49,689 nt of DNA. It comes from a phage. The first letter of the stretch is position 1; every line of letters begins with the position of its first letter. The position numbers and the translations under genes were made by a program. This document shows positions 4,069 to 44,732 of the stretch, piece after piece. The notes beneath the pieces were generated by a model. The model was not told the DNA's origin and made no database searches. It worked only from the letters and a program-made list of their open reading frames with translations. The DNA is taken from sequence record NC_105788.1; one strand, given 5' to 3'.

Positions 4069-5637
4069 ATGTTTAATATTAAGCCAAAACTGAATTACCA
4101 ACAGATTATTGAGATCGCAAATAGCACTGGAGTTAATCCGGTGGCGATCGCAATTCGTGAAAACAGCTATGGGGATTCAGTTTCGTTTTGGCAAGATCCG
4201 ATCGATATCAACAGTGGAAACGATAAGTTCCCGCTGATTTCGTTAGGTGGCGATAACCTGGTATTCGAATATGCAAAGGCAAAGGCTGAGTCTGTACAGT
4301 TTCCTGTTTCGTCTGCGTACGCTCATTTCATTGGGTGCATCTCAGCCGCGATGCTAGGGAAGTTTTGGGTGCAATATCACGGAGAAGAGCAACCGACCGC
4401 TCTTTATATGGTGATTAGTCAGCCACCTTCAACAGGTAAATCAGCTATTAACTCAGCGGCGATTACACCTATGCGTGCGGAGATTCAGCGGCTGAATGAA
4501 GAGCGAAAAAAGGAGCGCATCCGTTTAACCAGTCAGCTACGTCAGGTCGAGAAGGAAATCAAAAACGATCCAAAGGGTAATACGACGGCGGCGCTGTACG
4601 AAGACAAGGAAAAACTGGAAGAAAAGATCAAGAAGATGGCTGATATTGTTTTTGCGGTATCAGATCCTACACCTGAAGGTCTTGCGAAAGTTGCGGCTGT
4701 TCAAGGTCATTTCTCAGTAATCTCTGATGAGGCAACGGCAATAAATACATTGCTTGGCCTGACTTATGGCGGCTCTGATAAGAAATCAAACAGCGAGCTT
4801 ATACTCAAGGCGTGGGATAAAAACCATATGGAGGTTGCGCGTTCAAATCAGGACAACAACTTATCTCTTTGCCCGGTCGGTTCGATCTGCGTCATTGCGC
4901 AGGATGAAACAATCAAGGGTATCATGGACGCAGGCCAGCGCGGCATCGGTGTATCTGAGCGTTTCCTCCTGGTTCGCGAGGAACCGCTTTTAGGTACTCG
5001 TATTCTTTGCGATGAAAATGGTGATGCGCTGTATAAGGAAGTCGATCGAGGGTTGGTGAGTAAATATTATCGACTCGTGCACAACATTATGAAGGAGGAC
5101 AACATTGTTCTCTCTGTAAGCCGCAATGCTATGCGTGAATTAAACCTTGCGCGTCAGGCGATGGAGCCGGATTTCGCAGCCGGGGGAAAATACTCTCACT
5201 CAATGCTACGCGGTCATCTCGGCAAGTTCGATAAGCATGCCTTGCGTATTGCTTCAGTTCTCCACACGATCAAGAATTGGGAGGGTGAATCACCGAACCG
5301 TTCCAACCGTGAGATTGACCTTGAAACAATGCAGGAAGCAATCATGATTTTCAATGAGCTTTCCAGGACTTATCTGTCGTCTGCCAGCGCTGCCGGGTAT
5401 GCTGGTGATGAGGCTGAATCTCGTAAGCTGATTGATGTTATCACTGAGATCGCAAAGAAGAACAAAGGGCGCGCTCCGATTCATAGCATTGTTGCAAAGT
5501 GCCGGAATGTTACGCCGTTCAACGGTCAACAGAAAGTATCTGAGCGAATCGACAGCCTGCTGATCACGCTCGAAGAGATGAACTACACTTGCCGGATTGA
5601 TGATATTGTTTTCATCAACCCTCGACTGATGGGTTAA
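4069..5637 (+). CDS. large early protein of unknown function (about 522 aa) with P-loop-like PPSTGKS motif
   Basis: ATG 4069 (GTG 4066 possible) after AAAGGAG; long uninterrupted ORF; motif resembles DUF3987-type NTPase signatures but not verified. Confidence 0.55.
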   Translation: MFNIKPKLNYQQIIEIANSTGVNPVAIAIRENSYGDSVSFWQDPIDINSGNDKFPLISLGGDNLVFEYAKAKAESVQFPVSSAYAHFIGCISAAMLGKFWVQYHGEEQPTALYMVISQPPSTGKSAINSAAITPMRAEIQRLNEERKKERIRLTSQLRQVEKEIKNDPKGNTTAALYEDKEKLEEKIKKMADIVFAVSDPTPEGLAKVAAVQGHFSVISDEATAINTLLGLTYGGSDKKSNSELILKAWDKNHMEVARSNQDNNLSLCPVGSICVIAQDETIKGIMDAGQRGIGVSERFLLVREEPLLGTRILCDENGDALYKEVDRGLVSKYYRLVHNIMKEDNIVLSVSRNAMRELNLARQAMEPDFAAGGKYSHSMLRGHLGKFDKHALRIASVLHTIKNWEGESPNRSNREIDLETMQEAIMIFNELSRTYLSSASAAGYAGDEAESRKLIDVITEIAKKNKGRAPIHSIVAKCRNVTPFNGQQKVSERIDSLLITLEEMNYTCRIDDIVFINPRLMG

Positions 5638-7921: not shown

Positions 7922-7939
7922 CTTTATCAATTAGTGCGA
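7922..7939 (-). promoter_or_regulatory. degenerate box copy (GCACTAATTGATAAAG) followed by hairpin CCCGAA..TTCGGG and TATAGT
   Basis: resembles box cassettes; overlaps stop codon of 7931..9082. Confidence 0.4.
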
Positions 7940-9082
7940 TCCTGTCATTTCTGGACGATATATGAAACGACCGATTTCCCCAAACTGCTTATCGTAAACA
8001 ATTACCGCCGCCTGGCGATACGATCGCCACCCTCCGCGTGCTGCGTATGCATCTTTCGCGCCTAACTGGCCGTGTACTTCATCAATACCAAGCGAGTGCT
8101 CAGTGATTGTCTGGTGATGCCAGTGACCACTATGAGTATACACATACTTGCTCTCGCCGAAGTCTGATCGGAAATCTGCCGCCATTGCTGCAAGTCTCGT
8201 ATCTGCCTTCTTCATAGTGTGACCGTGAGTGTATCCCAACAAAGTATTTCCCCAACGAGTCTTATGCAGAATCATAGGACTAACATCAACGAATACTCGC
8301 GGCTCGTCTTCATAATATGCCGACATTGCAGCTCGCAGCCAAATCATCCCAGACTGATCGTGGTTCCCTTCGATAACCTGGACCTCGACTTCTTTGTGTT
8401 TCATAAGCATTTTGTCGATGGCGCGACGCACAGAACGAATCGCTACATGCACCAATTTCGCATATCGTGAATCCTGATCCAGAACGTGACCGCTTGCCGG
8501 GGTAACAGCGTCAAGGCCGTCAGAGTGAAGGAAGTCGCCACCGATTAACAGAACAGCCTTCTCTGCGTTCGGCGCAATATCGATCGCGTAATTAAAGAAG
8601 TCGCTAAGCACTTTTTCCGCTACGTCGGTGGAATAGTTCTCACCGCATTCATGCTTATGAGCAAGCGCGCCAATATGGAGATCGAATACCGGATAGAGTG
8701 CCAGCTTACCCATCGCTGTCGTAAGCCCTTGCGAGGTTAGTAGCTCGGTTGGCTTTGCTCGCGGCAGGTCTTCACAGAATGCAATACGCGCCGCTTCCAT
8801 CATTGCCGCAATCTTCTCACGGTCCTGATCGGTTTTAACCCAGCGCACTACCTCGGTCCCATCTCCGCGAATCATCGTTGATGTGCCTTTTACCATGAAT
8901 CCTTCCGGTACGTTCTTAGCAACATGCTCGTTACCGTGGAAGTGGCCTTCTTTTGCCAATTTTGCGTGGCGAGCTTCAACCGTGCGAATGTGCATACCGT
9001 ACTTTTCCGCGATCTCGCGAAGTGTAAGTCCGTTCATGCGTTCTTCGATAAGTTGCTCGGTAGTGATTTTAGATTGTGACAT
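7931..9082 (-). CDS. HTH domain fused to calcineurin-like metallophosphoesterase (Mre11/SbcD-like nuclease or PPP-type phosphatase)
   Basis: N-terminal helix-turn-helix-like segment (LTLREIAEKYGMHIRTVEARHAKL); metallophosphoesterase motifs DLHIG, GGDFLHSD, GNHD, GHTMKK, GHWHH; AAGGA RBS. Confidence 0.65.
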   Translation of the reverse strand: MSQSKITTEQLIEERMNGLTLREIAEKYGMHIRTVEARHAKLAKEGHFHGNEHVAKNVPEGFMVKGTSTMIRGDGTEVVRWVKTDQDREKIAAMMEAARIAFCEDLPRAKPTELLTSQGLTTAMGKLALYPVFDLHIGALAHKHECGENYSTDVAEKVLSDFFNYAIDIAPNAEKAVLLIGGDFLHSDGLDAVTPASGHVLDQDSRYAKLVHVAIRSVRRAIDKMLMKHKEVEVQVIEGNHDQSGMIWLRAAMSAYYEDEPRVFVDVSPMILHKTRWGNTLLGYTHGHTMKKADTRLAAMAADFRSDFGESKYVYTHSGHWHHQTITEHSLGIDEVHGQLGAKDAYAARGGWRSYRQAAVIVYDKQFGEIGRFIYRPEMTGSH

Positions 9083-42893: not shown

Positions 42894-42913
42894 GTTTTAG
42901 CAATTCGTGCTAT
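42894..42913 (-). promoter_or_regulatory. conserved box (minus strand ATAGCACGAATTGCTAAAAC)
   Basis: box copy overlapping TAG stop of kinase gene. Confidence 0.6.
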
Positions 42914-43482
42914 TTGTTGATGAACGTGGCGGCTATGTGCTGAGCGGTAATTTCTGGATGACCTTCGACAGAAAAGAAGTCACATTCCTGATAACCGTTA
43001 ACCCCGATCATGTCGTCAAGATAGATATAGTCTCGGCTGTCGTTATCAAAGCTGCAACCGTTGCGATGGATTCGACATAGCTTAACCTGGATATCACCTT
43101 CAATCATCTGCAAGATCTCATCTTTGAATCCACCGTCAGTAAATACCGAAAGGGAGTGCGACTCTTTCACCTTGCTTTCCGCTCGCATACCGAAGAAGCG
43201 ATTTCCGAACTGCGGCTTGATGACCTCCTCGCTAATCCAGATCATAAACTGGCGCGGGCTTTTACCGTTCAGGATTGATGCTGGCTCTTCTTTATAGCGA
43301 CGGTCCTCATACAAGAACATGAAATACTCAAAATTAGTCTCACCCAGGATTGCTCGGGCAATCTCAAACATTGGAGCTTTAAAGCTGCGTAGAGCTACAT
43401 GATCGTAAGTGTCAGCCAGGATGCACCCTATAGTGTCTTTTCCCGCGCCAGGCGCACCGTTTAAAATGATAGCTGTTTTCAT
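42910..43482 (-). CDS. deoxynucleoside monophosphate kinase (T4 Dnk-like)
   Basis: Walker A LNGAPGAGKDT and LNGKSP block that also occur in T4 Dnk (recalled, not searched). Confidence 0.6.
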   Translation of the reverse strand: MKTAIILNGAPGAGKDTIGCILADTYDHVALRSFKAPMFEIARAILGETNFEYFMFLYEDRRYKEEPASILNGKSPRQFMIWISEEVIKPQFGNRFFGMRAESKVKESHSLSVFTDGGFKDEILQMIEGDIQVKLCRIHRNGCSFDNDSRDYIYLDDMIGVNGYQECDFFSVEGHPEITAQHIAATFINK

Positions 43483-43483
43483 G

Positions 43484-43594
43484 TCAGTATCTCCCTAAAA
43501 ATAATTTCGCCACATTGATGATGGTGGAGTTTATGATTAACAGAATGATAACTGTTAGTACCGGATGTGCTGCAATAAATTCGTATAGGTTCAC
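43484..43594 (-). CDS. tiny hydrophobic peptide (36 aa, GTG start, below ORF-track cutoff)
   Basis: GTGA overlap with phosphatase stop, AAGGAG RBS; predicted single TM helix; coordinates approximate. Confidence 0.3.
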   Translation of the reverse strand: MNLYEFIAAHPVLTVIILLIINSTIINVAKLFLGRY

Positions 43595-44202
43595 TTCAAT
43601 AACTCCTTGCACTTAATGCAAATTTTCTCACCAAATGGCGGTAGCGGCTCAGATGGTTCATGATTGCAAACCTCATCTACCCCGTGAGATTTTAAATGAT
43701 CGTGGACTTTATCGCCATAGTCAACTACAGCATAAGTGGTTATTCCAAGCGACCGGAATAATGGAATAATTTGCGGTGAGTCATCCCATGCCGCCAGAAT
43801 GTTCTCAATGCCGATCGCGCGCACCGCCTCTTCTTTCATTACTGTGTCTTTCCGGTTATCGGTGTGTGGTCGCATAATCAGGTAATCATATCGAGCGCCG
43901 TGATGCTTGAGCCATAACTCAGATGCGTAACGCACCTCATCACTTCGCCCGGTTAAAATGATCACATGATACCCAGCGGCAAACATAGAGTTCATCACTT
44001 CAATCGTACTCTTGATTGGGTTATCAAATATTGCCGCTCGGTTAAACTCTGACCAGCTTTCAGTTAGGTGCAAATCCTTTGTCGGTAGCAGGTGAAGTCT
44101 ACCTGATCCGTCACTAAGTGTCCCGTCAAAGTCAAAGATTGCTACGCGGCGAGTACCGAGAAACAGGTTGATTGTCTGGCCCCAAATGGTAATTTTATCC
44201 AT
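43591..44202 (-). CDS. HAD-superfamily phosphatase
   Basis: N-terminal DFDGTLS (DxDxT) motif; C-terminal Cys cluster; CAATCAGAGGA RBS. Confidence 0.6.
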   Translation of the reverse strand: MDKITIWGQTINLFLGTRRVAIFDFDGTLSDGSGRLHLLPTKDLHLTESWSEFNRAAIFDNPIKSTIEVMNSMFAAGYHVIILTGRSDEVRYASELWLKHHGARYDYLIMRPHTDNRKDTVMKEEAVRAIGIENILAAWDDSPQIIPLFRSLGITTYAVVDYGDKVHDHLKSHGVDEVCNHEPSEPLPPFGEKICIKCKELLK

Positions 44203-44266: not shown

Positions 44267-44286
44267 GTTTTAGCAATTCGTGCTAT
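44267..44286 (-). promoter_or_regulatory. conserved box (minus strand ATAGCACGAATTGCTAAAAC) followed by hairpin AAGGGCA..TGCCCTT
   Basis: box copy after TAA stop of upstream gene. Confidence 0.6.
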
Positions 44287-44732
44287 TACCAACAAGTGAT
44301 CTCATAGTTGGCCCAGTCATCAAAGATACCCTGGCTGAAGTCGCCACCGTAGTTTTCCATAAGTTCATCGATCAGGAAGTAGCAGGATTCGCCGTTACGA
44401 TAGAAGTATGAATCTGCAACGTTACGCGCCCAGCGTCCGGCATCTTTCTTGCTCATCTTCCAGTATTTCATTGCAATTTTCTTGAATGCTCGCACGACAC
44501 GCTTGCGGATCTTGATATTCTTGTACACCGAATTGCAGCCGTAGGCCATATATTCGTTATTTCCAAGATTCTGCATGATGTACGGATTAACCTCTTTTGA
44601 GGTAATCATCAGATCGCCATCGCCGCGACGCGCATCATAAATACTTGCTGTCATGTAGTGACCTTTGAACATTCCGATGCCGTGCAGGGTGTATTCATCG
44701 TTAGGCGTTTCAATGCAAATCAAATGTTTCAT
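44286..44732 (-). CDS. hypothetical protein (about 148 aa)
   Basis: internal ATG with GAGGGA RBS. Confidence 0.45.
   Translation of the reverse strand: MKHLICIETPNDEYTLHGIGMFKGHYMTASIYDARRGDGDLMITSKEVNPYIMQNLGNNEYMAYGCNSVYKNIKIRKRVVRAFKKIAMKYWKMSKKDAGRWARNVADSYFYRNGESCYFLIDELMENYGGDFSQGIFDDWANYEITCW

Follow-up and report, generated by a model that had tools for sequence, protein, structure and literature searches.

A Pnkp-type 3'-phosphatase coupled to a Dnk-type kinase in a T1-like phage: a candidate module for host-DNA salvage

Abundant and notorious as contaminants of the laboratory, T1-like phages are also used in therapy studies. The way in which they convert the host chromosome into phage DNA is still counted as an open question by those who study them; T1 and phage TLS break down the DNA of the host and recycle its nucleotides (PMC11447400). 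The phage sequence NC_105788.1 (49,689 nucleotides, referred to here as the window) encodes on its minus strand a HAD phosphatase, a 36-residue peptide, and a kinase, all between positions 42,910 and 44,202. A first-pass annotation, made from the sequence alone, had reported this cluster and offered two alternatives: the two activities of a polynucleotide kinase-phosphatase split between genes and used for nucleic-acid end healing, or ordinary nucleotide metabolism. An open reading frame (ORF) check finds the cluster where it was reported, and nucleotide metabolism is the better supported of the two alternatives, short of proof.

The best explanation, about as likely as not, has two parts. The enzymes would be a coupled 3'-phosphatase and deoxynucleoside monophosphate (dNMP) kinase serving the salvage of host DNA or the clean-up of DNA ends. 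The three ORFs would form a single early transcription unit packed for coupled translation, running from a repeat/-10 cassette at 44287 to the kinase stop codon at 42910.

The 1.7 kb around the unit is 100% identical to Escherichia phage CLB_P3 (Drexlerviridae, Tunavirus), a T1-like coliphage, and 92-96% identical to many other T1-like phages. The T1 counterparts are ST64 ("polynucleotide kinase", 176 residues), ST63 (HNH endonuclease), and ST62 (hypothetical, 190 residues), located in the early arm upstream of the terminase genes. Both enzymes belong to known families, and annotation of the two genes in T1-like genomes goes back to the T1 genome record. As far as literature searches reach, the systematic pairing, and sometimes fusion, of a Pnkp-type phosphatase with a Dnk-type kinase has not been described previously.

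The phosphatase and the kinase

The HAD protein (43591-44202, minus strand, 203 residues) corresponds to T1 gp64 and is a homologue of the 3'-phosphatase domain of T4 Pnkp, with all catalytic residues kept. It matches the Pfam family PF25109 (HAD_PNKP) at 61.1 bits against a cut-off of 27.6 (E 1.7e-16, 136 of 143 profile positions) and phrog_415 at E 6e-67. The top PDB sequence matches are Capnocytophaga gingivalis Pnkp1 (E 9e-8), followed by T4 Pnkp. In the AlphaFold2 (AF2) model, the core has a predicted local distance difference test score (pLDDT) above 90, and the cap and tail are predicted with low confidence. Foldseek ranks 1-18 for this model are T4 Pnkp (5uj0, 1rpz, 2ia5, 1ltq) and Pnkp1, with the phosphatase-domain structure 5uj0 and Pnkp1 being the best.

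The DxDxT motif of the first-pass annotation is 24-DFDGT-28, which aligns with T4 165-DVDGT-169 and is invariant in 31 homologues. T4 residues Asp165, Asp167, Arg176, Ser211/Arg213, Arg246, Asp254, Lys258, and Asp277/278 align to Asp24, Asp26, Arg35, Thr84/Arg86, Arg111, Asp119, Lys123, and Asp140/141, all of which are invariant or nearly so in the same homologues. From T4 mutagenesis, Arg176, Arg213, and Asp254 are essential. The T4 phosphate and metal ligands Ser211, Lys258, and Asp278 are matched by Thr84, Lys123, and Asp141; the roles of these three, and of Asp165 and Asp167, are those described for the T4 enzyme (PMC3592404). T4 Pnkp hydrolyzes 3'-dTMP (24 per second) in addition to polynucleotide 3'-phosphates (PMC3592404).

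By homology, the window protein would be a Mg2+-dependent acyl-phosphatase of the T4 Pnkp 3'-phosphatase type. Asp24 would attack the 3'-phosphomonoester to form an aspartyl-phosphate, with Asp26 as the general acid/base and a 3'-OH as the product. Thr84, Lys123, and Asp140/141 would hold the phosphate and the metal.

The protein is stand-alone, and none of the 120 homologues listed (162-264 residues) has a kinase domain in its Pfam annotation. Public names for the gene include "polynucleotide kinase", "3'-phosphatase, 5'-polynucleotide kinase", "kinase", and "putative morphogenetic protein". These names are misleading because the protein holds a phosphatase domain only; the real kinase is encoded by the neighboring gene and belongs to another family. 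A stand-alone relative is also found in the T4-like phage ELT4 (L090, 3998-4474), where a second HAD_PNKP-type phosphatase, 33% identical to the window protein, follows nrdA-nrdB with its start overlapping the end of nrdB. The ELT4 genome also encodes a normal Pnk beside an RNA ligase.

The phosphatase ends in an optional C-terminal tail (residues 178-203, CNHEPSEPLPPFGEKICIKCKELLK; 43594..43671, minus strand) of 26 residues, predicted by AF2 with a confidence of 66-72. The tail is an exact 78-nucleotide presence/absence indel among Tunavirus that are otherwise 92-98% identical. Similar Cys/His tails are seen in distant members of the family, and one 245-residue protein annotated from Gammaproteobacteria (P0126) has the tail in duplicate. 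The C-x-H...C-x-x-C spacing suggests a zinc-binding module.

The phosphatase also scores above the Pfam cut-off for the class B acid phosphatases (Acid_phosphat_B, 28.6 bits against 27), and AphA and plant VSP are among the lower-ranked fold matches. These matches would suit a pool-balancing substrate cycle. In such a cycle, the phosphatase would be a 5'(3')-deoxyribonucleotidase for selected dNMPs and the kinase would take other dNMPs, so that the two shape the deoxynucleoside triphosphate (dNTP) pools instead of processing 3'-phosphates. Kinase/phosphatase pairs acting on one substrate class form regulatory cycles, and the position of the ELT4 relative after nrdA-nrdB agrees with such a role. 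However, the closest relatives by every measure are Pnkp 3'-phosphatases, and the family-specific Arg and Asp residues are conserved. Moreover, a futile cycle within one polypeptide, as in the fusion proteins described below, would waste ATP unless the two specificities were disjoint. A substrate cycle is considered quite unlikely.

The kinase ORF (42910-43482, minus strand, 190 residues) encodes the T1 gp62 homologue (99% identical). Its motifs are 9-GAPGAGKD-16, FK35xP, R61, LNGKSPR77, D116GGF, and D148SR. The P-loop GAPGAGKD compares with GVKRSGKD in T4 Dnk, and ILNGKSP compares with YLNGKSP. The kinase matches phrog_139 (E 2.1e-46, profile positions 82-260), and T4 gp1 matches the same region of this profile (E 1.8e-65, positions 83-261). 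The AF2 model has a pLDDT of 95.5, and among the 50 fold matches listed, the top TM-score belongs to T4 Dnk (1dek_A, TMq 0.69). When these matches are ranked by E-value, archaeal adenylate kinases lead, and most of the others listed are small-molecule kinases of the NMP-kinase fold. The Dnk-like character and the Walker A and LNGKSP blocks of the first-pass annotation are thus borne out.

The link to Dnk is a distant one. In hhalign, the alignment with T4 Dnk is confined to the N-terminal 74 columns, including the LNGKSP block, and has a probability of 78% (E 1.8e-5); that with T5 Dnk spans 46 columns and has a probability of 95.8% (E 8e-9). A MAFFT alignment with T4 Dnk gives 20% identity over 176 columns. 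The kinase family, which is large at 4482 representative clusters with E <=0.001, has 33 columns with a conservation of at least 90%, and T4 Dnk is identical at 12 of them. PDB searches using the kinase as a single sequence or as a 47-sequence profile recover only P-loop noise and not 1DEK. No Pfam or NCBIfam family, AAA_33 included, matches the kinase above threshold. Based on the PHROG profile, hhalign, and the fold comparison, the kinase is assigned to a subfamily of the phage Dnk family (T4 gp1, T5 Dnk), a distant one since direct hidden Markov model searches of the PDB miss 1DEK.

The same comparisons separate the kinase from Pnk. No Pnk or Clp1 entry appears among the 50 fold matches listed. 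T4 Pnk requires Lys15, Ser16, Asp35, Arg38, Asp85, and Arg126 (PMC2831316). In a gapless positional comparison from the P-loop, made without superposition, Lys15 is kept, and Ser16, Asp35, and Arg38 are replaced by Asp16, Lys35, and Met38. Lys35 argues for an anionic acceptor, probably a phosphate, because a cation sits where hydroxyl-kinases hold the catalytic carboxylate. The proposal of two split Pnkp halves therefore holds for the phosphatase, whose fold is nearest to the Pnkp phosphatase, and is wrong as homology for the kinase, which is nearest to T4 Dnk and is not a Pnk-type 5'-OH kinase.

Gene coupling, fusion, and the case for salvage

Genomic neighborhoods were surveyed in 80 IMG/VR viral loci with a kinase relative. 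The HAD gene accompanies the kinase in 60 of the 80 and, in all 60, lies upstream on the same strand. The two genes are directly adjacent in 38 of these loci, and stop/start overlaps are common. The synteny of the pair with a gp16-type gene, described below, was noted in Drexlerviridae in a 2026 paper on phage KanT1, where the pair was proposed to extend the replication module and enhance nucleotide supply (PMC13164509).

The two domains also occur in one protein. Among the 150 best matches of an exhaustive kinase search, two are long proteins that begin with a HAD_PNKP domain and end with a kinase of the same subfamily, and a third was recovered using a fusion protein as the query. These proteins (P0221, P0351, P0243; 403-461 residues) come from metagenomic contigs of uncultured phages and consist of HAD_PNKP, a conserved linker, and the Dnk-like kinase. 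The fusions are an evolving lineage and not an assembly error, since they are only 37-74% identical to one another and keep both catalytic motif sets and the linker. Close relatives of P0221 were sought in IMG/VR, and none were found. One fusion gene (L092, 6001-7212) lies on a 60.8-kb phage contig that also holds RdgC, NinH, PAPS-reductase-like, and Dam-like genes.

The pair is nevertheless separable. Distant kinase relatives mostly lack a HAD neighbor, and in a Drulisvirus, a 62%-identical HAD gene occurs without the kinase, among exonuclease and endonuclease VII genes. If the two were independent enzymes, neighbors only through dense packing of early genes, such solitary copies would be expected. 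That reading is very unlikely: all 60 co-occurrences, drawn from at least three phage families, show one and the same order and strand, stop/start overlaps are frequent, and there is a diverged clade of fusion proteins. The conserved gene order and the natural fusions make the coupling of the enzymes stronger than the first-pass annotation could know.

The neighbors of kinase relatives that lack a HAD gene include exonucleases, ligases, ThyX, and a methylase; one such relative adjoins ThyX and a 5'-3' exonuclease. These neighborhoods do not discriminate between salvage and repair. Two of them contain ligase-related genes. In L078 (3576-4526, 4959-5561), the kinase relative is near an Rnl2-like RNA ligase, and in L086 (4246-5010, 6252-6968), it is near a weak DNA-ligase-OB-like protein and ThyX.

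A third gene recurs with the pair. The window encodes it far from the unit (7931..9082, minus strand, 383 residues), as a protein 72% identical to T1 gp16 ("DNA repair exonuclease", phrog_704). It has an N-terminal LuxR/sigma-like helix-turn-helix and the calcineurin-like metallophosphoesterase motifs DxH, GDxxH, GNHD, HGH, and GHxH. No Pfam match was found at E <=0.01, and no PDB sequence match was found with the single sequence or a 10-sequence profile; the metallophosphoesterase call is based on the five motifs in the alignment and the PHROG name. An NCBIfam match to the ligase-associated phosphoesterase PdeM lies below threshold. A gp16-type gene stands immediately upstream of the HAD-kinase pair in 27 of the surveyed loci. 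The triad is also found in K1H (Kagunavirus) and in Era103 (Autographiviridae); in Era103 the gene right after the kinase encodes a DNA ligase. A gp16-like gene directly follows the fusion gene in L092 (7340-8500). Despite its distant position in this genome, gp16 is a probable functional partner of the phosphatase-kinase pair because the two adjoin in many phages.

These associations can be read as end healing. The Dnk-family kinase would have taken the place of the Pnk domain and would phosphorylate 5'-OH ends of DNA or RNA, and the HAD protein would remove 3'-phosphates, so that the pair or the fusion would be a true end healer. Breaks with 3'-phosphate and 5'-OH ends made by host or defense nucleases would be sealed via host LigA, RtcB-independent routes, or a phage ligase where present, and gp16 would trim the ends. 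The phosphatase is of the Pnkp type, the gene order is strictly conserved, and the natural fusions resemble Pnkp in being bifunctional. The same fusion-query search also retrieved proteins that join HAD_PNKP to a kinase of the Pnk type (AAA_33), as expected if one kinase domain displaced the other. The optional Cys/His tail, the ligase genes of Era103 and L078, and the PdeM hint for gp16 fit as well. On the other side, the kinase groups with the T4 and T5 dNMP kinases and not with Pnk, Clp1, or AAA_33, and it has Lys35 and Met38 in place of the T4 Pnk residues Asp35 and Arg38. Many kinase relatives have no HAD gene nearby, and Drulisvirus has the HAD gene without the kinase.

A ligase is also missing. 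As the first-pass annotation had observed, none is evident in the window: tblastn with an ATP-dependent DNA ligase, an Rnl-type RNA ligase, and NAD ligase subunits gave nothing below E 0.09, and none is annotated in T1. The suggestion that the cluster heals RNA ends to counter anticodon nucleases is therefore unlikely, as no ligase would complete the repair. End healing with a Dnk-family kinase in the place of Pnk is, overall, an unlikely, minority reading. Slightly less probable again is the proposal that the pair or fusion is an unrecognized class of Pnkp-analogue end healers that, with gp16, repairs 3'-phosphate/5'-OH breaks from host defense nucleases and leaves the sealing to a host ligase. 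If the displaced-kinase reading is true, the fused proteins are a new end-healing enzyme architecture with possible use as reagents; if it is false, the unit belongs to ordinary phage nucleotide metabolism.

In the salvage reading, the phosphatase would strip 3'-phosphates from deoxynucleotides, pdNp, and the ends of oligonucleotides and DNA. Exonucleases, polymerases, and the kinase would be stopped by these groups if they stayed in place. In the next step, the kinase would transfer the gamma-phosphate of ATP to the resulting 5'-dNMPs, giving deoxynucleoside diphosphates that host Ndk would convert to dNTPs. A salvage module fits the locus because it combines a Dnk-family kinase, a phosphatase whose kin accept 3'-dNMPs and 3'-phosphorylated ends, and a nuclease-like metallophosphoesterase. 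The ELT4 relative that follows nrdA-nrdB in a phage with a normal Pnk, and the ThyX gene beside one kinase relative, further agree with it. We infer the substrates and the salvage role, whereas the enzyme families, the conserved active sites, and the coupling and fusion of the genes are directly observed. The phosphatase-kinase pair with its frequent nuclease neighbor is a compact candidate for the pathway that converts host DNA.

Several points weigh against salvage. The literature yielded no biochemical or genetic data on T1 gp62 or gp64, only annotations and one remark on synteny. The proposed substrates are extrapolated from T4 Pnkp and T4 Dnk, to which the phosphatase and the kinase, respectively, are only about 20% identical. 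Nucleases of the Mre11 metallophosphoesterase type, like the usual E. coli nucleases, leave 5'-phosphate and 3'-OH ends, so salvage does not account for where its 3'-phosphates would come from. Pnkp end healers are built by joining a 3'-phosphatase to a kinase, and dNMP salvage is not known to use such a design. The ligase genes near the kinase in Era103 and L078 count here too, and the optional Cys/His tail hints at a macromolecular ligand. Finally, residues 34-57 of the HAD cap are the most conserved in the family yet have low confidence in the model; because the cap is poorly predicted, the shape of the substrate pocket cannot be read from it.

The proposed transcription unit, its small peptide, and its flanking repeats

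The three genes are tightly packed. The HAD stop and the peptide start overlap as GTGA in the window and ATGA in relatives, the peptide starting with GTG here and ATG there. One base separates the peptide stop from the kinase ATG (TGAcATG), and the kinase Shine-Dalgarno sequence GGGAG is embedded in the final peptide codons. Scans for sigma-70 promoters and terminators within the unit gave scores no better than shuffled sequences.

The peptide ORF (43484-43594, minus strand) encodes 36 residues and can be mechanically extended to 43612. The resulting 42-residue version, starting with GTG at 43612, is ruled out, as relatives use an ATG equivalent to 43594 that overlaps the HAD stop. Among nine Tunavirus versions, third codon positions account for 13 of 20 variable sites. 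The proportion of synonymous differences (pS) is 0.235 and that of non-synonymous differences (pN) is 0.024, for a pN/pS of 0.10. This pattern marks the peptide as a selected coding gene and not a chance ORF. A single-pass membrane peptide is predicted because the mean Kyte-Doolittle hydropathy over 19 residues reaches 2.25. The first-pass annotation was therefore right to place a hydrophobic peptide between the two enzymes, and the gene packing would suit the translational coupling it proposed.

The peptide is found in 55 phage records, all close Tunavirus relatives, and only some Tunavirus have it. In T1 and some others, a gene for an HNH homing endonuclease takes its position. The T1 gene (L005, 5465-5959) lies exactly between the phosphatase and the kinase, and the equivalent segment of CLB_P3, 43484-43671, consists of the Cys/His tail and the peptide gene. 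More distant Drexlerviridae have nothing or other inserts at this point, and the gap ranges from 0 to 1.5 kb among relatives. The phosphatase-kinase junction is an insertion hot spot. The peptide is treated as a lineage-specific passenger outside the conserved mechanism because of its narrow distribution, the HNH gene in T1, and the absent or different inserts in distant Drexlerviridae.

A variable junction could also point to conflict with the host. In a counter-defense reading, the HAD protein would strip a 3'-phosphoryl group from a defense molecule, for instance a 3'-phosphorylated signaling nucleotide or a tRNA whose 3' end was modified by a toxic kinase or pyrophosphokinase. The kinase would refill nucleotide pools drained by defense systems, and the membrane peptide would be a separate anti-host factor. 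Many small genes of unknown function surround the unit in the early region, a setting typical of host-takeover loci; its junction is highly variable; and T4 Pnkp is itself a counter-defense enzyme (PMC3592404). No match to known anti-defense families was seen (the PADLOC library was not searched), and supporting literature was not found. The associated genes, for nuclease, exonuclease, and ligase and in single loci nrdA-nrdB or ThyX, point instead to DNA metabolism. A counter-defense role is very unlikely.

Two perfect copies of a 20-nucleotide repeat, of the 21-nucleotide T1-type intergenic kind, flank the unit. The upstream copy (44268..44287, minus strand), read with transcription, is aATAGCACgaaTTGcTAAAA. 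Past it, at a distance of 19 nucleotides, begins the TG-extended -10-like hexamer TAGAAT, and the HAD start has a Shine-Dalgarno sequence ahead of it. This copy is probably a promoter-associated element for the unit. The downstream copy (42895..42914, minus strand) overlaps the kinase stop codon at the end of the unit, before the next gene (start 42837).

The repeat belongs to the aaATAGCACnnnTTGnTAAAA family, with the pattern aATAGCACnnnTTGyTAAAA. This family was described in phage TLS, where its function is given as an open question (PMC11447400). The window contains 17 copies with at most four mismatches, nearly all oriented with transcription and just upstream of genes. Seven are on the plus strand (732, 1197, 1614, 2979, 3495, 3995, 6157) and ten on the minus strand (9929, 10952, 15003, 41083, 42914, 44287, 44807, 46354, 47641, 48380). 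In 13 of the 17, a -10-like hexamer begins exactly 19 nucleotides past the repeat, and seven of those 13 have the TG extension. The hexamer is often inside an inverted repeat, and a CATCGAAACGA-like box is found downstream of several copies. The 45 nucleotides past the repeat fold much more stably than random windows (minimum free energy -12.7 versus -6.7 +/- 3.4 kcal/mol). The TTGCTA within the repeat was considered as a -35 hexamer and ruled out on its 22-nucleotide spacing to the -10-like hexamer. The repeat looks like an upstream promoter element or factor-binding site since its TTGnTA is too far from the -10 for a canonical -35.

Comparison with known systems

The C-terminal DxDxT 3'-phosphatase domain of T4 Pnkp (pseT; PDB 1LTQ, 2IA5, 5UJ0) shares its fold and the Pfam family PF25109 with the window phosphatase. 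Common to both are the nucleophile Asp, the acid/base Asp, the motif II Ser/Thr, the motif III Lys, the motif IV Asp-Asp, and the equivalents of Arg176, Arg213, and Asp254. Unlike T4 Pnkp, the window protein is stand-alone, with no Pnk-type kinase domain attached. Its cap, which separates motif I from motif II (RLHLLPTKDLHLTESWSEFN), is longer and shows very strong conservation. It also has an N-terminal beta-hairpin extension, the optional Cys/His tail, and an invariant Ser at the position of T4 Arg279. Its partner kinase comes from another family, and the genome encodes no RNA ligase.

C. gingivalis Pnkp1, of the Pnkp1-Rnl-Hen1 RNA repair complex (4XRP/4XRU), is the best PDB match of the phosphatase, and fold alignments of the two show 26-30% identity. 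Pnkp1 contains a Pnk-type kinase domain and has an RNA ligase and Hen1 as partners; none of these has a counterpart in the window system.

The class B acid phosphatase AphA and the HAD 5'(3')-deoxyribonucleotidases have the HAD fold in common with the window phosphatase and act on mononucleotides. Their similarity is a borderline Pfam match and lower fold ranks. They resemble the phosphatase less than Pnkp does, and AphA is periplasmic and has a different cap.

T4 gp1 and T5 Dnk (1DEK) share with the window kinase their PHROG (phrog_139) and the P-loop G-x-x-x-x-G-K-D, with Asp for Ser/Thr. The D-R-E, LNGKSP, Arg77, Asp116, and Arg-x-Gly lid motifs are also common, and the TM-score of 0.69 is the best obtained. 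In contrast to T4 Dnk, the window kinase is only about 20% identical and lacks the insertion of about 36 residues after LNGKSP. Invariant motifs specific to its subfamily are FK35xP, ISE85, DGGF119, and DSR150. It is systematically coupled or fused to a 3'-phosphatase, and T4 and T5 Dnk are not.

The T7 nucleotide kinase gp1.7 converts dNMPs from degraded host DNA into precursors for a phage that depends on breaking down the host DNA, the same role as proposed here for the window pair. It belongs to a protein family unrelated to the window kinase and has no coupled phosphatase. The T7-like setting of exonuclease, endonuclease, and ligase genes resembles the surroundings of the Era103 copy.

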